DNA of 64,000 nucleotides from Mobula hypostoma. Its lineage: Eukaryota. How positions within the stretch are numbered: position 1 is the first letter of the stretch; every line of letters starts with the position of its first letter. Position numbers and translations under genes: made by a program. The stretch is from contig NC_086097.1 of NCBI RefSeq assembly GCF_963921235.1, forward strand, positions 23,810,001 through 23,874,000, given 5' to 3'. Of this stretch, positions 6,449-63,051 are shown piece after piece. The notes beneath the pieces were generated by a model that searched no databases, was not told the DNA's origin, and worked only from the letters and a program-made list of their open reading frames with translations.

Positions 6449-6893
6449 CATCCTCCATGCTGCTGTACAATCTCAGCAGGTCAGGCAGCATCTATGGAAA
6501 TGAAAAAACAGTTGACTTTTTGGGCTGAGACCCTTCCTCTGAATAACTGGTGGAGTATTAAGAATAAAAAGGGGTGGAGATGGGCATGAAAGATTGAAAA
6601 GACTAGTGCAGTGCAATTGTGTCAAAGATGAAGAAATAAAACAGTTCAAGGAGATTAAGGATAAAAATATATGTAAGATTTGGATTATTTATCACACAAT
6701 TGATTTTGCTTGTATCCTTCCATGAGTTATTGGTACTTGTGTTGCTATGCTGAGCATAGAAGGCATGCTATGTTGGCGCTGGAGTGCAAGGCTGGCATTG
6801 TAGTCTGCCACCAGCACATCTGTAGGTTATGTTGGTTCCTAATGTAAATGACACATTTCACTGTGTGTTTCAATATACTTGTTATAAATAAAT

Positions 6894-7564
6894 GGACCTG
6901 CACCTGGACATGGACTAGGACATGGACAAGGACCTGGATCTAGATGTGTAACTGGACCTGGGCCAGGATCTTAACCTGGACATAGACTCAGACCGGGATC
7001 TTGACCAGGACATGGACCTTGAACTGGATCTTGACATAGACCCAGGCCCAGACCTGGACCTTGACCTAAACATGGACCCAGACAGGGAAATGAACCCAGA
7101 TCCAGACCTGGACCTGGACCTACACATAGACCCAGAACTGGACATGGACCTTGACCCGGATCTAGACCTGGACCCAGACATGCACCCAGACCTGGACCTG
7201 GATATGGACCAAGACCCAGCCCCAGCCCCGGACCTGGACCCGGCCCTGGACCTGGACCCAGACCTGGACCTGGACATGGATCTGGACCTGAACCTGGACC
7301 TGGAAATGGACACAGACCCAGACTTGGACCTTGACCTGGACATGGACATGGACATGGACCCGGAGCTGGATATGGACCCAGGTCTGGACCTGGACCTGGA
7401 CCTGGACCTTGACCCGGACCTGGATCTAAACATAGATCCGGACCTGGACCTGAACGTTGTCATGAACCCGGACTTGGATATGGATCCAGACCCAGACCTG
7501 GATCCGGACCCAGAACCAGCCTCGGCTCTGGACCCGGACTTGGACCCGGACATGGACCTGGACT
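6894..7564. repeat. Degenerate hexamer array (GGACCT/GGACAT/GGACCC)n, about 110 units
   Basis: Direct inspection; 6-nt phase gives the (DL/DP/DM)n ORF on + and the (RS/GS)n ORF on -. Confidence 0.97.
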
Positions 7565-8324
7565 TTAGAGGGAGTCAAAGTGTTTGGGGAAATTGGAAGT
7601 TTATGTAATGAAAGTCCTTTGTGTGAGCTGGAAAGTACTTCAGTAATGGAGATTCCGAATCTCTAATTGAAGTCACCGAAGAGTAAGAACAAAAATAGAG
7701 GAGTAAGAATGAGGCAGAAACATGCTGGTGATATGATGAACTTGTGTCTATAAGATGTGGGAAAACAAGATTTTCATAGCCCACTCTCAATATTGCTAAT
7801 AGAGTGCCAACCACAGTTACTTAACAGCACATTCCTCGTCTGCGAGAACAAGGTTGTGGTTTTACACCCTATGCCAGAACTTGCACATGAAGTTACGCTG
7901 ACACGTCAGTTCAGTGCTGGTGTGGGTGGATGACTTATGAAAGCAAGGCCCCCATCTGCTTGCTCAGCTCTGCAGAAAATCACCAGTGGCATCGCTTCAG
8001 GTAGGGAGTGGGCAGCTGATGCTTTGGATGAATGAGACTGTTCTTCTCATACTCTGACCAACATTTCTTCTAAACAGCTTTGAATGTCACTGGCTTTTGA
8101 AATATTCTGCTGTGAAAGTGATTAATATGAAAATTGCTATTTTAACATGTGGTGAAATGCTTTGAGACATTTACAATATGCATCACCAGAAATTATTTTG
8201 GCAAGTTTTTTTTTTGAAAATACATATTTGGAAAACACTGCTTGCTTCAAAAGGCAGTTGGGTAAAATCTTCATGTAAGTTATTGTGAAGCTGGAAGAGA
8301 AGTGTGGCTCGTTAAATAAGGACA

Positions 8325-9650: not shown

Positions 9651-10893
9651 GCCCGTACTCTTTAAGCACATATACATATGCAGTCATGTGCCTCATGGAA
9701 ACATGCATGCTTTCACCTCAGATGCAGGGGTCAGATGAGCTTCAAGATGAGCTATGAACCAAAGGGATATTGAAGTCATTAATTGCAACCTGATTACTTC
9801 ATAAAAGAATATATCTAAGTCAAAGTTCAAAGTAAAATTTGTTATCAGGGTACATACATGTCACCACATACAACACCGAGATTCTTTTCTCTGTGGGCAT
9901 ACTTAGCAAATCTATAGAACAGAAACAGTAAACGGGATCTGTAAACTGTAAATATCAGGAACTGTAAACTAAACAAACTGTGCAAATGCAAATAATAAAT
10001 AAATAGCAACAAATAACGAGCATAAAATAACAAGATAAAAGATAACAAGATAAATGAGTGTAGTTATCCCCTTTTGTTCCAGGTGGTATCTGGTAGTGCG
10101 AGTCCTGAGGCTATATAAATTAAATTGAACAACTAGTGCAAAAAGAGAGCAAATATAATGAGGTTATGTTCATGTGTTGGTTCATTGTCCATTCAGAAAT
10201 CTGATGGCAGAGAGAGAGAAGCTCTTCCTAAAACATAAAGAGCATGTCCCAGGTGATGGGTCGGCTTAGTGATGACTCCATCGTTTTCAAGGCATCCATT
10301 TTGTCTGTGATGCTGAAGATTTCCAGCTTCTACAGAATCTCTTGAGTCTCTAAGAAGAAGCAGGAGTTGGCCACTAACCCCTGAGACCTGCTCTCCCGGT
10401 CTGTAAATTCAGGATTGATCGGATTTTGGCTTTAATTCTAGATTCCTCTCCAATCCCCATTATCTCTGGCCCCTATCATGCAAAATCCTAGTCTTGATTG
10501 AACATCATTTATCAGCATCTATTGGGAATTCCAAGTATCCACACCACTCTGAGAGAAGAAATCCCGACTCATCTCAGTTTATGTTGTGTGTTCCCTTATG
10601 CTGAGACTATACCCCTGTCACCACTAGCATCAAATCTGTCAAGTCATTTCAGAATCTTGTATGTCTCACTTCATTTATGAAAAGTCAATTACACTCACTC
10701 TTTCCTCATAAATATCCGTGAGTCTTAGAATCTGAGGACAAGGACTGGAGGCCTGGAGCCGGCCTGACTGGATGCGTGAGAGGGCGGATGGGATGGATGG
10801 GAAAGGGGCTTGCTTTGTTGTTGTTGTCTTGTTTTGTTCTTGTTGCTGCTGCTTGTACTACTCAGCAGGTCGGGCAGCATCCGTAGAAACGAT

Positions 10894-10931
10894 CAGTCAA
10901 TGTTTCAGGTCGAGACCCTTCGTCAGGACTG
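10894..10931 (-). ncRNA. Minimal type-I hammerhead ribozyme motif (PLE terminus), core intact
   Basis: Minus strand reads CAGUC CUGACGA A GGGU CUCG ACCU GAA ACAU U GACUG: 5-bp helix I, CUGANGA, 4-bp helix II, GAAA, UH. Confidence 0.8.
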
Positions 10932-12076
10932 AAGATGGAAGGGGCAAGGTGCCTTATAAAGAAGGTGGGGGGAGGGTGGGAAGGAGAAGGCTGGTAGGTT
11001 CCAGGTGAAAAACCAGTAAGGGGAAAGATAAAGGGGTGGGGGAGGGGATAGGCAGGAAAGGTGAAGAAGGAATAGAGGAAAGCACAATGGATAGTAGAAG
11101 GAGGCAGAACCATGAGGGAGGCGATAGGCAGCTGGAGGAGGGGACAGAGTGAAACTGGGATGGGGGAAGGGAGGGGCAAGGAATTACCAGAAGTTGGAAA
11201 ATTCAATGTTCATGCCAAGGGGCTGGAGACTACCCAGACAGTATATAAGGTGTTGCTCCTCCAACCTGAGTTTAGCCTCATCATGGCAGTAAAGGAGGCC
11301 ATGTATGGACATATCCGAATGGGAATGTGAAGTGGGTGGCAACTGGGAGATCCTGTCTGTTGTGGCGGATAGAGCGGTGGTGCTTGACAAAGTGGTCCCT
11401 CAATCTGCATCGGGTCTCACCGATGTAGAGGAGGCCGCACCAGGAGCATGGGATGCAATAGGTGACCCCAACAGACTCACAAGTGAGGTGTTGCCTCACC
11501 TAGAAGGACTGTTTGGGGCCCTGAATTGTGGTGAGAGAGGAGGTGTAGCGACAGGTGTAGCACTTATGCTTACAGGGATAAGTGCTGGGTGGGAGATCCG
11601 TGGGGAGGGATGTGTGGACCGGGGGTCGCGGAGGGAACTATCCCTGTGGAAAGTGGAGAGGGAAAGATGTGCTTAGTGGTAGGGTCCTGTTGAAGGTGGC
11701 AGAAGTTGTGGAGGATAATCTGCGGAGGCTGATGGGGTGGTAGGTGAGGACAAGGGGATCTCTGTCCCTGTTGTGGTGGCAGGAGGATGGGGTGAGGGCC
11801 AAAGTGTGGGAAATGAAGGAGATGCGGGTGAGGGCATCATTGATGACGTGAGAAGGGAAATCACGATCCTTAAAGAAATAGGGCATTTGAGATGTCCTGG
11901 AGCAGAAAGCCTCATCCTAGGAGCAGATGCGGCAGAGCCGGAGGAACTGGGAATAGGGAATAGCATTTTTGCATGTGGTAGAGCCCCAGCTATGCCTGCC
12001 TCTTCATTGGTTATGTGGTCCCCACCACCACCGCCCTCCTCCGGTTGGCGGAACTGGTGCTCACACTTAATCTCTT

Positions 12077-13276
12077 TTGGCTCTTCCCACTTTCTTCATA
12101 CCAATGGCTGTAGCTATGGGTACTCGCATGGGCCCCAGCTATGCCTGCCTCTTTGTTGGTTATCTGGAACAGTCTATACTCCAAACCTATATTGGTACTG
12201 CTCCCCAACTTTTCTTTCACTACATTGACGACTACATTGGTGCTGCTTCCTGCACCCACGCTGAGCTCGTCAATTTCATCGGCTTTGCTTCTAACTACCA
12301 CCCAGCCCTCAAATTCACTTGGTCTATCTCGGACACTTCTGTCCCCTTTCTCGATCTCTCGGTCTCCATTTCTGGAGACAGACTGTCCACTGACATCTTC
12401 TATAAGCCCACTGACTCTCATAACTACCTCGACTATACCTCTTCCCACCCTGCCACATGCAAAAATGCTATTCCTTATTCACAGTTCCTCCGTCTCTGCC
12501 GCATCTGCTCCCAGGATGAGGTTTTCCATTCCAGGACATCTCAAATGTCCTCTTTCTTTAAGGATCGTGGTTTCCCTTCTGCTGTCATCAATAATGCCCT
12601 CACCCGCATCTCCTCCATTTCCCATACTTCGGCCCTCACCCCATCCTCCCGCCACCACAACAGGGACAGAGTTGCCCTTGTCCTCACCTACCACCCCACC
12701 AGCCTCCGGATCCAGCACATTACCTTCCACAACTTCCGCCACCTTCAACAGGACCCCACCACTAAGCACATCTTTCCCTCTCTACCCCTCTCCGCTTTCC
12801 ACAGGGATTGTTCCCTCTGCAACTCCCTGGTCCACACATCCCTCCCCATGGATCTCCCACCCGGCACTTATCCCTGTAAGCGTAAGTGCTACACCTCTCC
12901 CTACACCTCCTCTCTCACCACCATTCAGGGCCCCATACAGTCCTTTCAAGTGAGGCAACACTTCACTTGTGAGTCTGTTGGGGTCATCTATTGCATCCGG
13001 TGCTCCCGGTGCGGCCTCCTCTACATCGGTGAGACCCGATGCAGATTGGGGGACCGCTTCGTTGAGCACCTCCGCTCTATCCGCCAAAACAGACAGGATC
13101 TCCCAGTAGCCACCCACTTCAACTCTGCTTCACATTCCCATTCGGATATGTCCATACATGGCCTCCTCTACTGCCATGATGAGGCCAAACTCATGTTGGA
13201 GGAGCAACACCTCATATACTGTCTGGGTAGTCTCCAGCCCCTTGGCATGAACATTGAATTCTCCAATTTCCAGTAA
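12077..13276 (+). pseudogene. 5'-truncated PLE ORF: RT C-terminal half, thumb, Cys-rich linker and GIY-YIG endonuclease (Neptune-like)
   Basis: AMGTRMGPSYACLFVG, YIDD, FLD, YKPTDSHNYLDYTSSHP, IPYSQFLRL.RICS, PGTYPCKRKC, VIYCIRCSRCGLLYIGET...RFVEH...PVATHFN; frame open for 399 codons. Confidence 0.93.
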
Positions 13277-14120
13277 TCCCATAGTTGGATGCATCAGCAA
13301 GGGAGATGAGGCTGAGTACAGGGCTATGGTAGGAAACTTTGTCACATGGTGTGAGCAGAATTATCTGCAGCTTAATGTGAAAAAGACTAAGGAGCTGGTG
13401 GAAGACCTGAGGAGAGCTAAGGTACCGGTGACCCCTGTTTCCATCCAGGGGGTCAGTGTGGACATGGTAGAGGATTACAAATACCTGAGGATACGAATTG
13501 ACAATAAACTGGACTGGTCAAAGAACACTGAGGCTGTCTACAAGAAGGGCCAGAGCCGTCTCTATTTCCTGAGGAAACTGAGGTCTTTTAACATCTGCCG
13601 GACGATGCTGAGGATGTTCTACAAGTCTGTGGTGGCTAGTGCGATCATGTCTGCTGTTGTGTGCTGGGGCAGCAGGCTGAGGGTGGCAGACACCAACAGA
13701 ACTCATTCGTAAGGACAGTGATGTTGTGGGGATGGAACTGGACTCTCTCACGGTGGTGTCTGAAAAGAGGATGCTGTCCAAGTTGCTTGTCATCTTGGTC
13801 AATGTCTCCCACCCACTACATAATGTACTGGGTGGGCACAGGAGTACATTCAGCCAGAGACTCATTCCACCGAGATGCAGCACTGAGCATCATAGGAAGT
13901 CATTCCTGCCTGTGGCCATCAAACTTTACAACTCCTTACTTGGAGGGTCAGACATCCTGAGCCAATAGGCTGGTCCTGGACTTATTTAATAATTTACTGG
14001 CATAATTTACATATTACTATTTAACTATTTATTGTTCTATTACTATTTATTATTTATGGACCAACTGTAACAAAAACCAATTTCCCCCGGGATTAATAAA
14101 GTATGACTATGACTATGACT
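13277..14120 (+). mobile_element. Rex1/Babar-like LINE, 5'-truncated, inserted at the PLE stop codon
   Basis: ORFs 13254..13712 (WCEQNYLQLNVKKTKEL..D...YKYL.I.IDNKLDW...KKGQSRLYFLRKLRSF) and 13726..13968 (SHPLH...RKSFLPVAIKLYN); AATAAA then (ATGACT)3 tail; TAAT on both sides. Confidence 0.93.
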
Positions 14121-14380
14121 AATTCCCTCCCCCTCCCATCCCGCATCCTAGTTTCACTCTGCCCCCTCCCCCAGCTGCCTATCACCTCCCTCATGGTTCC
14201 GCCTCTTACCCATTGTGTTTTCCCCTATTCCTTCTTCACCTTTCCTGCCTATCCCCTCCCTGCTTCCCCTTCCCCACCCCTTGATCTTTCCCCTTACTGG
14301 TTTTTCACCTGGCACCGACCAGCCTTCTCCTTCCCACCCTCCCCCCACCTTCTTTATAGGGCCTCTGCCCCCTCCCTCTT

Positions 14381-14418
14381 CAGTCCTGACAAAGGGTTCC
14401 GGCCCGAAACGTTGACTG
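14381..14418 (+). ncRNA. Minimal hammerhead motif, G8-to-A mutated
   Basis: CAGUC CUGACAA A GGGU UCCG GCCC GAA ACGU U GACUG; palindromic ACGU retained. Confidence 0.7.
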
Positions 14419-15449
14419 TTCGTTTCCACGGATGCTGCCCGACCTGCTGAGTTCCTCCAGCGTGTTGTGCGTGTTGCTTTGACCCCAGCATCTGCAGAGT
14501 ATTTTGTGTCTGCTGCTTGTACTGTTCTGCAGAACATTGTGGGCATAATACATTGGCACCGGAATGCGTGGCGACACTTGCGGGCTGCCCCCAGCACATC
14601 CTTGGATGTGTTAGTTGTGAACACAGATGACACATTTCACTGTTTGTTTTGACGTGTGTGGGAGAAATAAATGTGAACCTGAATCTGAAACAATGGTACT
14701 ACTCAAGCAATCAACTCAGTAAATCTTCTCAGTACCAGCATCAGATTTATGACAATCCATGAACCCATGAACAAAACTTGACTATTTTGCTCCCTCGCAG
14801 TATGTTATTTATGCTTCTTATTAAAACTTACTGTATTTTTTAATATTTTGCACAGTACTGCTGCTGCAAAACAACAAATTTAATGACATATGTCCGTGAT
14901 AATAAAGCTGATTTAGATTCTGATATATTTTCTTAAATAAGCAGGCCTAAACATAGCAGTTCCCAGTAGGTTTAAAATTATCATGTTGCTTTGCTCCTCT
15001 ACACTTCCTTCCCCTTATCTCTCAGGATGTTCGCAAGATGAGGGTTCATGACCAACCTTTAGCCTTGCATAGCTCCTCATAGAGATGCTGGTATCAATCA
15101 GGAAATCATTTTGTGCTGTAAGGTACCTGTTAGGTAATATTATTGTTCATTATCAAGAACTAAACACGGGATGAAATCTTCAGCGCATTATCTGAAATGT
15201 TATTTTAAAGCATGCCCACTAGATGTCACCTCTTAGTGATATAAATGAATGTCTGTTCGGAAATGATATGAACAATAGAAACAAACAAAATAGGAGCAGA
15301 TATGGGTCACGTGGCCCCTCGGATTTGTTCTGGTCTTCAAGATGACCATCGTCATTCTGGTTATTGTCATAGGTGGGTTGATACAGTGCAGAAATAGGTC
15401 CAAGCCAACTATTAGCCATGCAGTCACACTATTTCCATTTTATTTTTAT

Positions 15450-15728: not shown

Positions 15729-16069
15729 TCTTATTCTCCCCACAGTCCTTTCAACCTCTCCCTGATTCTACCACTCACCTACACTCCAGGGACAATTTAC
15801 ATTCAGGGACCAAGGATCAAATTTATTCACCATATACATTTACATTTGCTGTGGCGTGCAACAAAATACAACAGCATTCAACAATTATAAAAAATAAAGA
15901 ATTACACAAAATAAAGTTAGAGTTTAAAGAATGAATACAAAATAAAATGTACATAAATACATAGATACCAGCAAGAAAACTTCACTCCATCTTAGAAGTT
16001 TCTTTCCCCAGGCAACAAATCTGATTAGCCATTCTAGTTGTCCCCGACCCCCTCTATCTATTAAACCAT

Positions 16070-17390
16070 GATTGTAACAGGATTGGTCCGAGGCAGCATG
16101 GATTTAAGAAGGGGAAATCGTGCTTGACTAATCTTCTGGAATTTTTTGAGGATGTAACTATGAAAATGGACAAGAGAGAGCCAGTGGATGTAGTGTACCT
16201 GGACTTTCAGAAAGCCTTTGATAAAGTCCCACATAGGAGATTAGTGGGCAAAATTAAGGCACATGGTTTTGGGGGCAGAGTACTGACATGGATTGAAAAT
16301 TGGCTGGCTGACAGGAAACAAAGGGTAGCGATTAACAGGTCCCTTTTGGAATGGCAGGCGGTGACCAGTGAGGTACCGCAGGGTTCAGTGCTGGGACCGC
16401 AGCTGTTTACAATATATGTTATTGATTTAGATGAGGGAATTAAAAGTAACATTAGCAAATTTGCTGATGACACAAAGCTGGGTGGCAGTGTGAAATGTGA
16501 GATGGATGTTATGAGAACGCAGGGTGACTTGGACAGGTTGGGTGAGTGGGCAGATGCATGGCAGATGCAGTTTAATGTGGATAAATGTGAGGTTATCCAC
16601 TTTGGTGGTAAGAATGGGAAGGCAGATTATTATCTAAATGGAGTCAAGTTAGGAAAAGGGGAAGTACAATGAGATCTAGGTGTTCTTGTACATCAGTCAC
16701 TGAAAGCAAGCATGCAAGTACAGCAGGCAGTGAAGAAAGCTAATGGCACGCTGGCCTTCATAACAAGGGGAATTGAGTATAAGAGCAAAGAGGTCCTTCT
16801 GCAGTTGTACAGGGCCCTGGTGAGACCACACCTGGAGTACTGTGTGCAGTTTTGGTCTCCAAATTTGAGGAAGGACATTCTTGCTATTGAGGGAGTGCAG
16901 CGTAGGTTCACGAGGTTAATTCCCGGGATGGCGGGACTGTCATATGTTGAAAGATTGGAGCAACTGGGCTTGTATACTCTGGAATTTAGAAGGCTGAGAG
17001 GGGATCTTATTGAAACATTTAAGATTATCAAGGGATTGGACACGCTGGAGGCAGGAATCATGTTCCCGCTGATGGGTGAGTCCAGAACCAGAGGCCACAG
17101 TTTAAAAATAAGGGATAGGCCATTTAGAACGGAGTTGAGGAAAAACTTTTTCACGCAGAGAGTGGTGGATATATGGAATGCTCTGCCCCAGAAGGCTGTG
17201 GAGGCCAAGTCTCTGGATGCTTTCAAGAAAGAGATGGATAGAGCTCTTAAAGATAGCGGAATCAAAGGTTATGGGGATAAGGCAAGAACTGGATACTGAT
17301 TGTGGATGACCAGCCATGATCACAGTGAATGGCGGTGCTGGCTTGAAGGGCTGAATGGCCTACTCCTGCACCTATTGTCTATTGTCTATA
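16070..17390 (+). mobile_element. CR1/HER1-like LINE, RT domain to 3' end, relatively young
   Basis: Same-frame ORFs 16124..16672 and 16712..17299 separated by one TGA: SCLTNLLEFF, YLDFQKAFDKVPH, VPQGSVLGPQLF, KFADDTKL, LVRPHLEYCVQFW; (CTATTGT)n tail. Confidence 0.96.
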
Positions 17391-19899: not shown

Positions 19900-21380
19900 C
19901 AAACTCAAAGTACATTTATTATCAAAGTAAGTATACTTTATACAACCTTGAGATTAATCTCCTTTCAGGCAGCTACAAAACAAAGAAACTCAATAGAACC
20001 CATTAAAACAAAAAAAAAGACTGTCAAACACCCAACGAGTAGAGAAAAAAAAAAGAAAAAATGTGCAAACAATAAAAGTGAGCAAATAGCATTCAGAACT
20101 GAAGTTCACACTGTAATTGCTGCAGGCCATATCCACAGTTCGGTGCAGAAATGAGTAAATCTCGCGGAGTAATGAGTTGAAGTTCAGCGCAGAGATGAGA
20201 ATAGCTCACAGAGCAGCTATTTGAACAGGCACGTGCCTCGCCTCCGGCCCCCATACCCTGTCCTTTTCAATAGACAATAGACTATAGACATTGGGTGCAG
20301 GAGTAGGCCATTTGGCCCTTTGAGCCAGAACTGCCATTCACTGTGATCATGGCTGATCATCCACAATCAGTACCCCGTTCTTGCCTTCTCCCCATATCCC
20401 TTGACTCCGCTGTCATTAAGAGCTCTATCTAACTCTTCCTTGAAAGCATCCAGAGAATTGGCCTCCACAGCCTTCTGGGGCAGAGCATCCCACATATCCA
20501 CCACTCACTGGGTTAAAAAGTTTTTCCTCAACTCCTTTCTAAATGGCCTTCCCCTTATTCTCAAATTGTGGCCTCTGGTTCTGGGCTCCCCCATCATTGG
20601 GAACATGTTTCCTGCCTCTAGCGTGTCCAATCCCTTAATAATCTTATATGTTTCAATCAGATCCCCACTCATCCTTCTGAATTCCAGTGTATACAAGCCC
20701 AGTCGCTCCAATCTTTCAACGTATGACAGTCCCGCCATCCCGGGAATTAACCTCGTGAACCTACGCTGCACTACCTCAATAGCAAAAATGTCCTTCCTCA
20801 AATTTGGAGACCAAAACTGTACATCTGCTTTCGATCTGGCCCAGCGCTTAAATCATCCAGACCTTGCTCTCAGACCCGGAACCTGCTGTTTCGATACGCT
20901 CTCGGACCAGTGCCCCACCATCCCAATTCAGCCCGTACCCAATTCTCCAATTCCGCTAGGCTCTTAAATCAATCAAACCTCGGGTCTTTCCTGGCTCTCA
21001 GGCCCGGCAAACTCTCAGGGCCGCCTCCTCAACTCTGCATCACCTCACCTCAGTTCTGCCGAATTGTATTGCCGCCAAGTTCGTTCCAGGAATGGCCAAA
21101 CTTTGGTTCATCCTCGCTCTCCGGTCAGGACCCCACCACCTTGATTCACCTCATACACACCATGCCTCAGCCATCCTGCACCTTTGAGTCTTCAATTCCC
21201 ACTGCAAAAATGCCAGGTCAGACAGCCGGTTCAAAACCCAACACTGACCAGAAAGTTACAGCCTATTGTTTGCAGTGATCATTTACCAGAAAAAGTGCAA
21301 TTAAAGAAGTATTTAGTTTTTTCTTTGTTTTATTTGCCACCAGCAATCAGTCGCTGAGCTTCATCACCACCATCTTACAC
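19900..21380 (-). mobile_element. Non-autonomous Rex1-tailed retroposon, interrupted by a CR1
   Basis: Rex1-type tail (gataataaatgtactttgagtttg), CpG-rich non-coding body, 5' end aagatggtggtg near 21365-21376. Confidence 0.6.
20270..20823 (-). mobile_element. CR1 3' fragment, same subfamily as 16070-17390
   Basis: ORF 20505..20801 is nearly identical to part of 16712..17299; same tail type. Confidence 0.93.
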
Positions 21381-22989
21381 CAGAAGACAAAATTTAAGGA
21401 AAATGAAATGTTATTTCAGATTCAGTTTTATTTATTTATCACATGTACATTGAAACATACAGTGAAATGTGTCATCTGTGTTGACAACAAACACACTCAA
21501 GGATGTGCTAGGGGCAGCCGACCAGTGTTGCCACACATTCTGCACCAACATAGCGTGCTCACAATGTTCAGCAGAACAACACAAGCAACTACAAGAACAA
21601 CAACAAGATGAAACAAGGTGACATTTGCCACCCACAGTCTCTCTCACATACCCAGGCAGTCCCCCAACCCCAGGAAAGTCTGCTTCCAGGCCTCCAGTCC
21701 TTGGGTCCAAATTCTTAGGTTTGTTGACATCAGGCTTCCCACCTCTAGTCCCTGGTCCGGAGTTTCAGATTCAGCCTTTGGGCCGCTACCTCCAGACTGG
21801 CCAACTGCCTTTTGACCTTTGGGCTTTCTACCTCCAGACTCATTCTTCCTACAGGGGAAACTGAAAGAATTAGTTGCAGAGGGAATTAAGGAGAGGATGG
21901 AAGGGACAAACGGAATATTCTGGAGAGAGTGAGGTCTGGGTTGCCAAGGTGATTCCACTGTTTACAGACCGACTGTTTGAAAGATTAGTGAGGGGCTAGA
22001 TATAGATCAGAACCAAACAAAGGGACATGTAATAGTTACGAAATGCAAGTCACAGCTGTTTCTGAGACTAAAGGGAGAATGGTCAAAATACTCAGCAGGT
22101 CAGGCAGTGTCTGTAGAGAAAGGAGAATCGAATCAATATATTCTCATTTTCTTCTCAGGTGTCAGCAATACTCTGACTTGCTTCTTTTGTTGTTGTTTCT
22201 CTTTCCTTCATTAATCTTTTGGACATATTTCCATATATTGTGTATTAGCCTGGCAACTACGGCCTCTTGCTGCCAATCAGAGACATTACCTTTGTCCTTT
22301 CCATCCTTTTCTCACTGGATTTTTCAGGGGATGGCTCATCCCTGGGCTTTCCTTTGCTGGAGAGTTCTGGAGGCAGCATATTAGAAGTATGTAGAGTGCG
22401 TTTGACGTATATAAAGTGGAGATTAAAAAAAATCATTCAAATGATTGTGAAATTGATGTTCAAAAGCAGAAGGGGAATTCAGGTCAGCCATGAATGCACT
22501 GAGTGACAAGGCAGGCTTAAGGGGCCACATGGCCTACTGTCTTGTTATCTTTGTGAGTCCTCTCTGTGGTTTCACATTTCTAACAAAGGATCTTTGAATT
22601 TCAATTCTATCTCTTTTCATCTTTCCACTTGACCTGCTGAGTGATTCTGTTTGCTGCAAGATTTCCAATTTTCAATTGCTATCTTAATCTGGCCAATATG
22701 TGGCTTCTGACCTGATGGTCTCTGAGCTGCCCTATAAAGCCATTCAGTTCAAGGGCAATTATGGATGGACATTAAATTCCGGCTCAGCCAGCTGCAGTGA
22801 TATCTAATGAATTAATAAATACTATAATAAAAAGAAACCCCTCCTCCATGGCATGGGGTGGTGTGGGGGTGTGGGGCTGTGGAGCAGGATGCTGGGAGAG
22901 ACAATGCAAACTCTTGGGTCTGTTCTGTCATTCAACTTGATAATGGCTTGGCCTCTGTCTCCATTTTTCCACCCAATCCCATATTCTCC

Positions 22990-23730
22990 GAATCAGAGTT
23001 AGAATCAGGTTTATCGTCACGGAGATATGTTGTGAAATGTGTTGCTTAGCGGCAGCAGTACAGTGCAAGTCATGTTACAAAAAGAAATATATAGAAGTAT
23101 AAATAAACGGAAAATTCTGGGGAAACTCAGGAGGTCAGGCATCATCTGTGGGGAGGAATGAACAGCTTACGTTTCAGACTGAGACTCTTCATCAGGACTG
23201 GAAAGGAATGTCGAAACGTCGACTGTTCATTCCTCTCCATAGATGCTGCCTGACCTGCTGAGTCCCTCCAGCATTTTGAGTTTGTTCCCTTGGATTTCCA
23301 GAATCTGCTGAGTCCCTTGTGTTTAAAAAATTAATGAGTGGTACAAAAAGAGAGCAAAACTGAGGTGGTGTTCCTGGGTTTACTGTCCACTTAGAAATTT
23401 GATGGCAGAGGGGAAGAAGTTGTTCCTAAAGTGTTGAGTGTGTGTCTTCAGGCTCATACACCCCTTCCTTGATTGTGGTAATGAGAGGAAAGTATGTCCT
23501 TCTGAGGGTCCTTAAGGATGGATGCTGCCTCCTTCATGCATCGCCTTTGGAAGATGTCTTTGATGTTGGGAAGGCTAGTGGCTGTGATGGAACTGAGTTT
23601 ACAACACTCTGCAGATTCTTCCAATCCTGTGCAGGGGCCCCTGCATACCAGCTGGTGATGCAACCAGTTAGAATGCTCTCCATGGAACACCTGAAGATGT
23701 AGGAGTTTGCTGGAGCCTTTGGTGATGTAC
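22990..23730 (-). mobile_element. Rex1-like LINE 3' fragment carrying a nested PLE fold-back
   Basis: YIFRCSMESILTGCITSWYAG..AQDWKNLQSVV and RRCMKEAASILKDP. Confidence 0.85.
23115..23325. mobile_element. PLE-terminus fold-back element with hammerhead motif at 23163-23200 (-)
   Basis: actcaggaggtcaggcatcatctg and atagatgctgcctgacctgctgagt are inverted; minus-strand CAGUC CUGAUGA A GAGU CUCA GUCU GAA ACGU A. Confidence 0.8.
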
Positions 23731-35415: not shown

Positions 35416-35949
35416 CCACCTGAGCTGTTAGGGTCGTCATTGTGAGGTGTTGCTCGCAGGAGACCTAAGTACTCTAAATGTTGTTTGACAGAATAAATGT
35501 CATTATGTCCAAGTCTTCTCTGTCAATGTGGCAAAATAACCAATCTGGAACTTCCTTCAATCACACTTTGAGTTTGAAGACACAGTGCCCCCATCTTTGC
35601 TGCAGATGTCTTGACATTGGGTTCCAATGTTAGATATCTTTCTGCAAGTATTGGATGAGGGATCTAGTATTTTCTTGTCAATTTTCAAAGTATATTTCTT
35701 GCTTGTATTAATAAGAATAGAGGTTGTTTCAGTAAATATCTTCTCAACATGACTTATCTTTTCTTAACATTCACTTCAAAAACTGAGTTTGTTCTCCATC
35801 TCAAACTTGCTTTTCACTTCTCCAAAAAATGGTGATGAAAACCGGGATTTTTTTTGTCCATCCATGAGATGCTGACAATATTTCACACGTATTCCCCATC
35901 TCCAATGCCCACAGAGAAGGTGGTGGCAAGCTGCCTTATTGAACAGGTG

Positions 35950-36175
35950 ACAAACAAGAGAAAACCTGCAGATGCTGGAAATCCAAGTAACACACACAAA
36001 AATATGGAGGAACTCAGCAGGCCTGGCAGCATCTGTGGAAAAGTGCAAACTGTTGATGTTTCAGGCCGAGACCCTTCATCCTGACATAGGGCCTGGCCTG
36101 AAACGATGGTTATTTACTGTTTTTCACAGATGCTGCCTGGCCTCCTGATTTCCTCTACCATTTTGTGTGTGTTTA
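35950..36175. mobile_element. PLE-terminus fold-back element, axis inside the hammerhead core
   Basis: acacacacaaaa..tggaggaactcagcaggcc.ggcagcatctgtg is inverted as cacagatgctgcctggcc.cctga.ttcctc.a.cattttgtgtgtgt; centre cccttcatc|ctgacataggg at about 36080. Confidence 0.85.
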
Positions 36176-36664
36176 TTGAACAGGTATGGTCCGTGTGATC
36201 AAAGTCCATTGCACCGTGCTGTTTGGTAGGAAGTTTCCAGGTTTAGACATAATATTGAAGGAATGGCAATAAATTTTCAGCCCAAGATGGTGTCTGTTTT
36301 AGAGGAGAGCTCATTGTCCACATCCTTCCAGGTAGCGGAAATGCAAGTTGGGAGGTTCTGTCAAAGTAGTCTTCCCAGGTAACTCTAGAGCACATTGTAC
36401 TATTTGTGTGTTGGTAATGGAGGGAGTGAATGTAAAGAATGGATAATAGTGGGCTCTAATTTATAATTTAAATTTTTATTATATTTACTATCGATTTGTA
36501 CTCCAGGGAGCGCGAAGCGCAGAATCAAATATCTCTGAGATGATTGCACGCTCTAGTATCAATTGTTTGGCGACAATAAAGTAATAGTAATAATCTGGGA
36601 GTAAAATTATACCAAGCTTCTTGAATGACATTGAGTTTGTACTCACTTATTTGTGCGTAGAGTA

Positions 36665-42859: not shown

Positions 42860-44480
42860 TCCACGCTCACCCCATCTTCCCCAAAGAGATCCTGCCACCA
42901 AAACACACTTTTACCTCTCCCCTACATCTGCTGTCTATGGGGATTGCTCCCACCGCGATTACCTTGTCTATTCATCCCTCCCCACTAATCTCTTTCCTGG
43001 CAAGCGGCCAAAGTGCTATACTTGCCCATTCACCTCCTCCCTCTCCTCCGTTCAAGACCCCAAAGAGTTCTTTCAGGTGAGGAAACACTTTACCTCTGAA
43101 TCTGCTGGGGTCGTCTAATGTATCCGGTAGTCTGCATACGTCCTCTACCTTGATCAGAACCAACTTAAATTGGGGGACCGCTTCGTCGATCAACTCTGCT
43201 CTATCCGCCAAAAGCAGAACTTCCTTGTGGCCAGACATTTTAATTCAGACTCCCATTCCCATTCCAACATGCCAGTCCGTGGTCCCCTCTCATACCAGGA
43301 GGAGGCCACCCTCAGGATGGAGGAGCAACACCTTACAATACATTCTGTCTGAGTAGCCCCCAACCTGATGGCATGAATATCAGTTTCTCCTGATACAAAA
43401 AATATCTCCCCCCCACTTCTTTTATTCCCCACTCTAACATCTTATCTCTTCTCACCTGCCTATCACCCCCTCTTGGTGTCCCTCCTCCTCCTCTCCTATC
43501 AGATTCCTTCCTCTCCAGCCCTTTACATTTCCCACCCTTTTCCACCCACAAACAAGGGAAAATCTGCAGATGCTGGAAATCCAAGCAACAGCCACAAAAT
43601 GCTGGAGGAATTCAGCAGGCCAGGCAGCATCTATGGAAAAGAGTACAGTCGGCATTTTGGCCTGAGACCCTTCATCGGGACTGGAGAAGAAAATGAGGAG
43701 TCAGAGTAAGAAAGATGGGAGGGAAGGTGAAAGTGGGAGGGGAGAGGTGTGAAGTAAAGAGTTGGGAAGTTGATTGGTGAAAAAGATACAGGGCTGGAGA
43801 AGGGGGAATCTGATAGTAGAGGACAGAAGAAGGCATGGAAGAAAGAAAAGAGAGAGGACCACCAGGTGGAGGTGATGGGCAGGTAAGGAGATAAGGTGAA
43901 AGAGGAAAATACGAATGGAGAAAGGTGAAAGTGAGGGGCATTATCAGAAGTTTGAGAAATTGATGTTTATGCCATCAGGTTGGAAGCCACCTAGAGAGAA
44001 TATAAGGTGTTGTTCCTCCAACCTGAGTATGGCCTCATCGCGACAGTAGAGGAGGCCATGACCTGAGATGTTGGAATGGGAATGGGAAGTGGAATTAAAA
44101 TGGGTGGCTATTGGGAGATCCTACTTTTTCCGGTGGATGGAGCATAGATGCTTGGTGAAGCCGTCTCCCAATATGTGTTGGTCAAGGGAGCCACGTAGGT
44201 AGCGATCCCTGTGGAAAGCAGAAAGTTGGGGGGAGGTGAGGGAAAGATGTGCTTAGTGGTGGGATCCCACCAGAGACTGCAAAATCCTTTCCTACCCACC
44301 TGGCTTCACCTATCACCTTCTAGCTATCCTCCTTCCTCTCTCTCCATCTTCTTATTCTGGTGTTTTCCTCCTTTTCTTCCCAGTCCTGAAGAAGTGTCCT
44401 GGCCCAAAATGTTGACAGTTTATTCATTTCCATAGATGCTGCCTGACCTGCTGAGTTCCTCCAGCATTTTGTGTGTATTG
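42860..44480. mobile_element. Cluster of three PLE fragments in alternating orientation (+,-,+)
   Basis: GDRFVDQLCSIRQK....VARHFNS.SHSHS.M.V.G (43170..43352); minus copy 43550-44270; plus 3' end 44280-44480; decayed hammerheads at 43646-43683 (-) and 44381-44418 (+). Confidence 0.85.
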
Positions 44481-44669
44481 CAAGAAATTCTGTTATTTGG
44501 TATAAAAAATATAAGCTCTGTACAATTGAGATTTATTTTGAAGGTACATTGAGAAGCAGTACATTTTCTTTATAGTGTGATGTGTGGAGTCTGTCATTGG
44601 ATACACTATAAAATTTAATTAGTTTTATTTATTATATCCTTATTGAAATCTAGCAAATAATGAAAGTCT

Positions 44670-60689: not shown

Positions 60690-61410
60690 TAGATAGATAT
60701 AGATAGATAGATAGACATACTTTATTGATCCTGAGGGAATTTGTGTTTCGTTACAGCATTACCAACCAAGAACAGAGTACAAACATAGCAATACAAAACC
60801 ACAAACAATCAAATAATAATATGTAAACTATGCCAGAGGGTAATAAGTCCAGGACCAGCCCATTGGCCCAGGGTGTCCGACCCTCCAAGGGAAGAGCTGC
60901 AAAGTTGATGGCCACAGGCAGGAATGACTTCCTATGATACTCAGTGCTGCATCCTGGTGGAATAGTCATTGTCATAGTCATACTTTATTGATCCCAGGGG
61001 AAATTGGTTTTCATTACAGTTGCACCATAAATATTAAATAGTAATAGAACCATAAATAGTTAAATTGTAATATGTAAATTATGCCAGTAAATTACAAAAT
61101 AAATCCAGGACCAGCCTATTGACTCAGGGTGTCTGACCCTCCAAGGGAGGAGTTGTAAAGTTTGATGGCCACAGGCAGGAATGACTTCCTATGACGCTCT
61201 GCGTTGCATCGCGGTGGAATGAGTCTCTGGCTGAATGTACTCCTGTGCCCACCCAGTACATTATGTAGTGGATGGGAGACATTGTCCAAGATGGCATGCA
61301 ACTTAGAAAGCATCCTCTTTTCAGACACCACCGTCAGAGAGTCCAGTTCCATCCCCACAACATCACTGGCCTTATGAATGAGTCTCTGGCTGAATTTACT
61401 CCTGTGCCCA
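60690..61410 (-). mobile_element. Two tandem Rex1-like 3' ends with (TATC)n and (ATGACT)n tails
   Basis: ORF 61116..61466 is nearly identical to 13726..13968; second copy at 60690-60963. Confidence 0.9.
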
Positions 61411-61476
61411 ACGGTGTAAATGATGTTACACGCCGACGTAGGGTTGGCAGAGGGAGGGATGTACACAACAACCCTT

Positions 61477-62175
61477 GTGATTGTACTTACCTCTCACTCA
61501 GTGATTGTACTTACCCTTCGCACAGTGTGATTGTACCTACCCCTCAATCAGATTATACCTACCCCTTACTCAGTGTGATTGTATCTACCCCTCGCTCAGT
61601 GTGATTGTACCTACCCCTCACTCAGTGTGATTGTACTTACCCCTCACTCAGTGATTGTACTTACCCCTCGCTCAGAGTGATTGTACCTACCCCTCACTCA
61701 GAGTGATTGTACCTACCCCTCGCTCAGAGTGATTGTACTTACCCCTCCCTCAGGGTGATTGTACCTACCTCTCACTCAGTGTGATTGTACCTACCCTTGC
61801 TCAGAGTGATTGTACTTACCTCTCACTCACAGTGATTGTACTTACCACTCACTTACAGTGATTGTACCTACCGCTCGCTCAGAGTGATTGTACCTACCCC
61901 TTGCTCAGAGTGCTCGTTCTTACCTCTCATTCACAGTGATTGTACTTACCCCTCACTCAGAATGATCGTACCTACCCCTCACTCAGAGTGATTGTACCTA
62001 CCCCTCGCTCAGAGTGATTGTACTTACCCCTCGCTCAGAGTGATTGTACCTACCCCTCGCTCAGGGTGATTGTACCTACCCCTCGCTCAGAGTGATTGTA
62101 CCTACCTCTCGCTCAGTGTGATTGTACCTACCTCTCGCTCAGAGTGGTTGTACTTACCTCTCACTCAGAGTGATT
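61477..62175. repeat. 26-bp minisatellite GTGATTGTACCTACCCCTCGCTCAGA, about 27 units
   Basis: gtgattg recurs at 61988, 62014 and 62040; a few units are 24 bp. Confidence 0.97.
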
Positions 62176-63013: not shown

Positions 63014-63051
63014 CAGTCGACGTTTCTGGCTGAAACTCTTCATCAGGACTG
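63014..63051 (-). ncRNA. Minimal hammerhead motif, core intact, helix II decayed
   Basis: CAGUC CUGAUGA A GAGU UUCA GCCA GAA ACGU C GACUG, within PLE terminus 62915-63051. Confidence 0.65.

Follow-up and report, generated by a model that had tools for sequence, protein, structure and literature searches.

Architecture of the insertion

The locus described here comprises two inactive copies of a Penelope-like element (PLE), both truncated, that lie head to head inside one 14-base target site duplication (TSD), with a LINE fragment that later landed in the plus arm (Table 1). Positions refer to the window, i.e., the whole 64,000-nt stretch of Mobula hypostoma DNA that was analyzed. As the first-pass annotation had claimed, a minus arm of ∼1.1 kb mirrors the plus arm: positions 10860 to 11981 are the reverse complement of 12450 to 13278 plus 14124 to 14452, with 89 to 91 mismatches over 1,114 columns and 8 to 9 short gaps. 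The last 57 nt of the 3′ end are confined to the plus arm, the outer end of the minus arm falling short by that length. The coding part of the minus arm is broken by 2 stop codons and by 4 deletions that shift the frame; in the plus arm, two frameshifts lie immediately upstream of the open family reading frame, and the N-terminal half of the reverse transcriptase (RT) is absent.

Table 1. Features of the inverted PLE insertion and its flanks (window positions)
Feature	Positions	Strand	Remarks
Host dispersed repeat, 5′ part; T/G-rich tract and left TSD copy at its end	10723-10859	+	Alignment with paralogue 21411-21703
Left copy of 14-bp TSD	10846-10859	+	
Minus (inverted) arm: RT thumb, linker Zn-finger, GIY-YIG, 3′ UTR, hammerhead	10860-11983	-	
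Minimal type I hammerhead motif, decayed	10894-10931	-	Palindromic stem III ACAT (family, ACGT)
Inversion junction; inferred 3-nt microhomology	11981-11983		GGG in both donors, GAG today
36-nt templated insert	11983-12018	+	Source plus arm 12132-12167, 33/36 identical
Plus arm, 5′ truncation within RT	12019-14509	+	Outer end is the family's long ("tail") end
Open family reading frame, ∼389 codons: YIDD RT motif, thumb, linker, GIY-YIG with internal CxxC	12107-13276	+	
Nested younger LINE 3′ fragment, PF09004 domain, short tandem-repeat tail	∼13281-14119	+	At PLE stop codon
Minimal type I hammerhead motif, decayed	14381-14418	+	Core G8 to A at 14391
One-sided "tail," ∼30 nt	14479-14509	+	End classes of window copies; family continuation behind 14478
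Right copy of 14-bp TSD	14510-14523	+	
Host dispersed repeat, 3′ part	14524-14693	+	79% to 21411-21587

By its sequence, the element is an endonuclease-bearing (EN+) PLE, in which a PLE-type RT is followed by a C-terminal GIY-YIG domain in one open reading frame (ORF). The YIDD motif at 12221 and the GIY-YIG motif at 12983 share a single frame, and 431 homologues were retrieved at an E value of ≤1e-20 (the best two, 81% and 78% identical, both from rays), which upholds the initial assignment to Penelope-like elements. Five metagenome loci, only 24 to 35% identical, were left out of the comparison. The Pfam match to PF01541 (E = 0.0009, 20 bits) lies under the 22.6 cutoff. Within the nuclease, a CxxC starts at 12992 and a His pair at 13067; we read the latter as part of a CCHH motif, with two Cys between GIY and YIG. 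Upstream, a CX2-5CxxC linker of the CX3CxxC type is intact in the minus arm, has its last Cys replaced by Ser in the plus arm, and is kept in 7 of the 8 homologues checked, the pattern being missing from P0008. According to Craig et al. 2021 (PMC8557442), this linker defines the Neptune/Nematis clades of C-terminal EN+ PLEs and is absent from Penelope/Poseidon; the present element resembles the former both in the linker upstream of GIY-YIG and in the two Cys between GIY and YIG. The linker motif thus points to a Neptune/Nematis-type element, and its presence speaks against the Penelope/Poseidon clade.

Target site and host repeat

The TSD copies are identical, and they are the only two copies of this 14-mer on either strand of the window. 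Its length is exactly 14, as the adjoining bases mismatch on either side. Among 20,000 random end pairs, none gave a match of at least 12 nt (best, 11), and when the real T/G-rich left flank was held fixed, all other right positions in the window matched over fewer than 11 nt. The 14-bp TSD proposed for the two ends is thus an exact, window-unique pair that stands above its random controls.

When the flanks are rejoined over a single 14-mer, they are collinear with a paralogue at 21411 to 21703 (288 columns, 79%), where a single related word stands at the corresponding place between the anchors. Junctions with one and two copies of the 14-mer score nearly equally against this paralogue (264 versus 262) because the tract upstream is of low complexity; the paralogue therefore favors a single preinsertion copy but falls short of proof. 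Of the earlier description of a SINE-like host that rejoins cleanly, collinearity across the site held, with the scores tied as above, and the SINE-like label found no support: the window contains no tRNA gene, and Rfam gave no match over the gathering score within 10500 to 15000. As regards a SINE head (tRNA, 5S, or 7SL derived), the copies may be 5′ truncated or too decayed. In contigs of three relatives, whose flanks differ from those here by 2.8, 5.5, and 7.5%, the left-flank alignment ends at 10813 and positions 10814 to 10862 are skipped as repeat, so that an empty site was seen in no relative among the best 15 of ∼2,800 joints, a result that we count against a single integration.

Inversion junction and nested LINE

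At the junction sits a 36-nt stretch copied from the plus arm, and this links the two arms to a single event. The source of this patch falls outside the range of the minus arm, and the patch adjoins the inner end of that arm; since it joins the minus arm to sequence beyond its range, the junction formed with both arms already in place. A 3-nt microhomology probably assisted the joining. The divergence of the patch from its source (3/36) is compatible with the 8.2% divergence of the arms, a weak comparison given a confidence interval of 1.8 to 22%.

The first-pass annotation had regarded the whole as one insertion, and the single TSD around both arms, together with the patch, bears this out. 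Two independent PLE insertions at separate times, the later one hitting the 5′ end of the earlier and a 14-mer arising by chance, are extremely improbable. Copies of the family are very numerous (143,904 contigs of run X5 align to the stretch), PLEs are able to target their own sequence (PMC11167929), and the minus arm appears more decayed, all of which would suit two events; against them stand the single TSD round both arms, the absence of an inner TSD, a probability of less than 1 in 20,000 for the chance 14-mer, and the patch that ties the arms together.

The nested LINE (∼840 bp) has a TSD of its own of 4 to 7 bp with ambiguous edges. It is missing from the minus arm, and one contig of run X9 joins 13266 directly to 14146. 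The LINE, the junction patch, and the 57 nt found in the plus arm only were not part of the initial finding.

Divergence of the arms

The arms differ by 8.0 to 8.2% in total and by 5.9% without CpG sites. Their differences are spread evenly over the codon positions (21/22/21), and the 15 synonymous differences observed compare with 16.2 ± 3.5 under simulated neutrality, the pattern predicted for neutral decay. Two active lineages as the source of most differences were rejected: a share above ∼25 to 30% is disfavored (p ∼0.05 to 0.03), under the assumption that third positions take up 70% of such changes. Gene conversion tracts were likewise rejected, as identical runs are not unusually long (longest, 47; P = 0.24), and so were Arg-to-Cys/His changes as a sign of a shared template, for the 4 common to both arms lie close to the ∼3 expected from parallel CpG decay. 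In the tree, the arms cluster together (83/82, branch not starred) and with P0001 (94/92), and the linker is one residue shorter in both arms and P0001 but not in P0002, P0004, P0005, or P0006. Arms of different subfamilies, which would have spoken against the initial finding, are rejected by this grouping and by the shortened linker.

The arms have not changed equally, however. In post hoc tests, the minus arm exceeds the plus arm in amino acid changes (26 versus 11, p = 0.02) and in frame-breaking changes (6 versus 0, p = 0.03), and UTR transitions number 13 versus 6; synonymous transitions, on the other hand, number 7 versus 8, and a test of unequal decay with the closest outgroup, P0001, gave p = 0.30. 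The proposal that arm divergence could date the insertion in the manner of LTR pairs was not confirmed. Such dating presupposes arms that were identical at birth, which is not shown, given about twice the amino acid changes in the minus arm; most aligned family contigs are 90 to 95% alike, and 8% is what would be expected of two family copies of similar age.

An inverted unit born at another locus and moved here ready-made, by retrotransposition of a hairpin RNA or by copying at the DNA level, would carry arm divergence older than the TSD. The codon test is compatible with such a history, neutral decay being expected at the earlier locus too, and the TSD copies show 0/14 differences, although P is 0.30 for that outcome at 8% divergence. 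The TSD abuts both outer ends with no flank carried along, the patch and the arms are equally diverged, and reverse transcription across a 1.1-kb duplex would be unlikely. We consider this history improbable.

Mechanism of integration

That the inversion arose during integration, as first proposed, is supported by the TSD abutting both outer ends, the templated junction, and the neutral differences. The TSD, the geometry of the arms, the patch, the LINE, and the neutral spread of differences are observed; priming from both sides, the order in which the ends were joined, and the number of template RNAs (one or two) are inferred. Probably, a single integration of an EN+ PLE produced 10860 to 14509 (minus the LINE) by two-sided priming followed by joining. 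The GIY-YIG nuclease would cut one target strand 14 nt from its cut in the other, and each target 3′ end would prime cDNA near the 3′ end of the element RNA, on the right at the family's long start site and on the left 57 nt further in. Both cDNAs would stop early, at ∼1.65 kb and ∼1.1 kb, and their free ends would be joined mid-unit via the 3-nt microhomology and the 36-nt patch from the longer arm, with fill-in yielding the TSD. Such a unit, lacking half of the RT, would be dead on arrival and then decay neutrally, and the LINE would insert at the plus-arm stop codon later. In vitro work on a Poseidon PLE (PMC11167929) found that both target strands are nicked and extended and that two adjacent start sites define the tail, and a dimer is predicted for the enzyme; the Neptune/Nematis-type linker of the present element sets it apart from that PLE, which counts against the model.

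The same single event may, with lower probability, have proceeded by fold-back copying. Here, the right end alone would be primed; the RT would reach 12019, make a backward jump on the RNA and copy 36 nt, switch by way of the 3-nt microhomology to the cDNA that it had itself made, copy this back toward the priming site, and stop 57 nt short, after which the product would be connected to the left end of the target. In that case the two arms would have started out without any difference, which would make LTR-style dating valid. Among 15 other window copies, 7 end at 14472 to 14478 and 3 at 14508 to 14509. The outer end of the minus arm (equivalent to 14452) is neither of these common family ends, lies 26 nt short of the short one, and has only 2 of the 15 copies near it; moreover, the minus arm lies wholly inside the range of the plus arm, as fold-back requires. 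Both points count against two-sided priming. The neutral differences also suit fold-back, as do 6 family-versus-copy sites in the arms (from the best 40 of 331 rows), where 0 changes are common to both arms, 2 are private to the minus arm, 3 are private to the plus arm, and 1 site is three-state; self-priming has been proposed for head-to-head Penelopes (PMC3846280). The unequal decay described above argues the other way, within the limits given there. So does a second inverted unit in the window (35949 to 36172), with a 13-bp TSD, one long-ended arm, and one short-ended arm, as its ends suit two fixed start sites better than a random stop; we count it in favor of two-sided priming.

Within two-sided priming, it is doubtful, though conceivable, that the arms came from two different RNAs, one of which stemmed from a copy that had decayed before, with a dimeric PLE enzyme acting on both target strands simultaneously. 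If so, head-to-head units would record a two-template reaction and arm divergence would overestimate age, and the many ray copies would allow one- and two-template events to be counted, which would settle the mechanism of PLE integration.

Relation to known insertions

The architecture itself is already published (PMC3846280, PMC8557442). According to PMC3846280, Pen2a_Av and Pen2 of Adineta vaga are inverted-pLTR insertions of an EN+ Penelope, with a TSD verified by an empty allele. They share with the present case the head-to-head arms in one TSD, a tail on one arm, and a shorter inverted arm. They differ in TSD length (8 to 10 bp there, 14 bp here), in an inverted arm that consists of the pLTR only (here, it includes 830 nt of ORF), and in a palindrome in place of the templated 36-nt patch. 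Compared to the general PLE architecture in Craig et al. (PMC8557442), where the origin of tandem and inverted structures is termed undefined, a direct (tandem) pLTR is missing here and both arms are 5′ truncated.

A parallel is offered by L1 twin priming and its switching variants (10.1101/2024.08.27.596794, PMC11702581): priming starts from both nicks, the TSD is retained, the inversion point holds a short additional piece, and opposite-orientation insertions from two RNAs are described. In L1, any arm overlap has a median of 22 bp, whereas it is 1.1 kb here; in addition, both arms start near the 3′ end here, other enzymes are involved, and poly(A) is absent. By title or abstract, no literature on PLE arm dating or twin priming was found, subscription papers being mostly outside that scope, and the accessible part of a 2026 retrozyme preprint does not treat inverted units. 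The locus alone matters little, being a clean vertebrate case of a published insertion pattern. Counted over many units, the templated patch, the neutral codon pattern, and unequal arm decay would tell two-sided priming and fold-back apart and show whether arm divergence can date insertions.

Hammerhead motifs and other window content

Hammerhead motifs were located by pattern scan. Stem I pairs at 5/5 positions in both arms, and Rfam reported no hammerhead at an E value of ≤5. As in the minimal hammerheads of metazoan PLEs (PMC4209133), the motifs are of the minimal type I with a palindromic stem III, and close opposite-strand pairs are known there; unlike those described in that source, both copies here have core changes and lack the same-strand partner of the dimer. 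With neither an intact core (C3-G8 and a palindromic 15.2-16.2) nor such a partner, active ribozymes appear unlikely on sequence grounds. The suggested hairpin with a hammerhead near each end was not borne out: because the two motifs sit on opposite strands, each transcript would contain a single sense motif, held in a duplex with its complement, and each core has mutations. The arms themselves would be predicted to fold into a hairpin, broken by the 840-nt LINE.

One contig of run X11, guessed to be RNA, matches 10482 to 10763 exactly at depth 4; it is strandless and may be DNA, and we give it no weight as evidence. In X11, the counts of A>G (48) and T>C (47) resemble those of the DNA runs (49 to 57 and 49 to 54); they come from contigs, which are unable to show A-to-I editing. 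In another 38 ORFs of the window, each 110 amino acids or longer, Pfam revealed no host gene, a search that short exons would escape; the same ORFs returned RT and LINE domains and one subthreshold KA1 match.

An inverted Penelope-like element bounded by one target site duplication

The Penelope-like element (PLE) unit, two head-to-head arms at 10860-14509, is real and well bounded, and its insertion pattern is already known. An inverted, 5'-truncated copy beside the 5' end is typical of PLEs, as is a one-sided tail of 30-40 bp, in the available text of Craig et al. (PMC8557442); the corresponding text of Arkhipova et al. (PMC3846280) describes such units with an empty allele and with target site duplications (TSDs) of 8-10 bp, whereas that of the Mobula unit measures 14 bp.

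Features of the PLE unit (window coordinates)
Feature	Position	Strand	Description
Minus arm	10860-11983	-	Reverse complement of 12448-13278 plus 14124-14452
Plus arm	12019-14509	+	Begins inside RT
Open frame of plus arm	about 12107-13276	+	YIDD, thumb, CX3CxxC-type linker, GIY-YIG
Hammerhead motif	14381-14418	+	In plus arm; G8 changed to A
Hammerhead motif	10894-10931	-	In minus arm; stem III palindrome lost
Patch	11983-12018		At inversion point; copy of 12132-12167, 33/36 identical
LINE 3' fragment, 840 bp	about 13281-14119		In plus arm, at PLE stop codon; PF09004 domain

The first-pass annotation had proposed a single insertion, and this was borne out. The exact 14-mer at 10846-10859 and 14510-14523 has no further occurrence on either strand of the whole window, and it is longer than every control match: the best was 11 nt among 20,000 randomly drawn end pairs allowed 5 nt of slack, and 10 nt at any other position when the T/G-rich true left flank was held fixed. 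Both flanks are parts of one dispersed repeat; joined over one 14-mer, they are 79% identical over 288 columns to a paralogue at 21411-21703; between the matching anchors, this paralogue has a single related word. This comparison appears favorable to a single pre-insertion 14-mer but not decisive, because a junction with two copies scores practically equally against the paralogue (264 versus 262), the upstream tract being of low complexity. The description of this host repeat as SINE-like found no support in tRNA-gene or Rfam searches. At the left junction (10857-10862), the end of the TSD and the start of the minus arm form a 3-nt ACT tandem that is not collapsed, contrary to the prediction of microhomology priming.

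Element identity and 3' ends

By the clade definition in PMC8557442, the linker groups the element with the Neptune/Nematis type and not with Penelope/Poseidon. The top protein matches come from stingray and devil ray, with sharks next, pointing to a ray as the probable host. Two homologues from this search, P0001 and P0009, are labelled as host-gene isoforms (divergent protein kinase domain 1C and chitinase domain-containing 1) and consist largely of PLE open frame, which may reflect either annotation artefact or exonisation.

The 3' ends of 15 other copies in the window fall at 14472-14478 (7), 14508-14509 (3), 14497-14498 (3), and 14451-14460 (2); the plus arm therefore has the long "tail" end. 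The minus arm ends 57 nt earlier, matching neither common family end. A 3'-end copy at 6458-6539 (73% over 83 nt) has a match ending at nearly the minus arm's family position, and the letters beyond it look like the TSD in reverse complement, which may reflect either chance or a common target preference.

Divergence of the arms

The arms differ at 89-91 of 1,114 columns (8.0-8.2%; CI, 6.6-9.9), with 8-9 short gaps and a K2P divergence of 8.5%, or 5.9% outside CpG sites. Most contigs aligned to this stretch are 90-95% alike, so 8% alone cannot tell a common template from two family members. Several observations favor identity at birth. Across 261 codons, 64 differences are spread evenly over codon positions (21/22/21), and 15 are synonymous versus 16.2 ± 3.5 expected in a neutral simulation. 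No conversion tract was found between the arms, and the patch has diverged as much as the arms, with a wide interval. In a protein tree of 14 rows in all, including 8 of 15 shark and ray homologues and 3 distant rows, the arms are sisters (support, 83/82), and a linker indel is common to both arms and P0001, the closest outgroup; the comparison supports a single subfamily for both arms.

The larger number of changes on the minus arm counts against identity at birth, in tests devised after the data had been seen. By a vote over 11 homologues (3 ties), derived amino-acid changes number 26 on the minus arm versus 11 on the plus arm (P = 0.02); frame-breaking changes number 6 versus 0 (P = 0.03). 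The direction recurs with 10 of 10 single outgroups, reaching P < 0.05 in only 2 (closest outgroup, P = 0.30). Synonymous transitions, also counted post hoc, are even (7 versus 8), and the 6 family-versus-copy sites among those listed (2 minus, 3 plus, 1 three-state) show no minus-arm excess. The earlier proposal that the arms could be dated like LTR pairs is plausible for this unit but unproven. Flank differences from low-depth contigs of three other species (34/1,226, 49/896, and 70/930 letters, orthology assumed) provide a yardstick for such a clock; among the joins listed, an empty site appears in none of the three.

Junction patch, nested LINE, and mechanism

The LINE fragment and the patch were both missed in the first-pass annotation. 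The patch was copied from sequence that the minus arm does not cover, tying both arms to one reaction; two separate PLE insertions are very improbable, and relocation of a pre-formed inverted unit as a whole is scarcely less unlikely. We infer that the patch entered via 3-nt microhomology; comparable short pieces have been described at L1 twin-priming junctions.

For the inverted unit, we favor two-sided priming as the probable mechanism. In the accessible portion of PMC11167929, a Poseidon protein from Anolis nicks each strand of the target and extends it in vitro, two start sites define the tail, and a dimer is predicted; a second window unit (35949-36172) has a 13-bp TSD, with one arm long-ended and the other short-ended. 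Fold-back copying of one cDNA within a single event would explain why the minus arm lies within the plus arm's range and has an unusual outer end, and a similar self-priming is proposed in the available text of PMC3846280; we consider fold-back distinctly less likely than two-sided priming.

The minus arm lacks the nested LINE, which differs from the copy at 60959-61388 at 31 of 429 positions. Its arrival after the PLE unit would be the simplest reading; alternatively, it may already have been part of the plus arm's template. At 60711-61410 lies a LINE 3' end that matches the nested fragment at 92%; a short duplicated piece precedes it, and another 3' end, which has diverged further, comes after it in tandem. 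An array of ∼26-bp tandem units, roughly 85% alike, occupies 61476-62175.

Predicted hairpin and hammerheads

The proposed long hairpin with a hammerhead near each end holds for the predicted pairing and falters on the motifs, which lie on opposite strands and are both mutated relative to the family form at 63051 and in contig ends. From the arm alignment, 1,054-1,057 of 1,114 columns would pair in read-through RNA of either strand, giving 17 helices of at least 21 bp, the longest of 72 bp; the loop would measure ∼470 nt, and the LINE would bulge out over 840 nt. A predicted fold of 11180-13280 pairs 760 of 802 left-arm bases with the right arm. Given the opposite strands, each RNA carries only one sense motif, which would pair with its antisense twin at the hairpin base. 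Minimal PLE hammerheads act as dimers with low activity, according to the accessible part of PMC4209133. In the Anolis element of PMC11167929, where G8C and not G8A was assayed, G8C abolishes cleavage; the plus arm has G8A.

Other inverted and repeat features

The mini-unit at 35949-36172 is likewise head to head (35936-36185 with its exact TSD); its arms are 81% alike over 85 columns, the left bearing the tail and the right stopping at the short site. A third head-to-head mini-unit (23102-23322; arms 82% alike) has a 13-mer with one mismatch on both sides, a doubtful TSD because these lie 15-17 nt from the ends. Within an older PLE cluster (42872-44488), where no TSD was found, a head-to-head pair (43548-44481) adjoins a plus-strand RT/GIY-YIG fragment. 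Another inverted pair, 16843-17389 and 20277-20823 (90.7% over 547 nt, 2.9 kb apart), adjoins an RT open reading frame at 16025-16672, and a diverged tandem repeat at 6893-7566 has long open frames on both strands.
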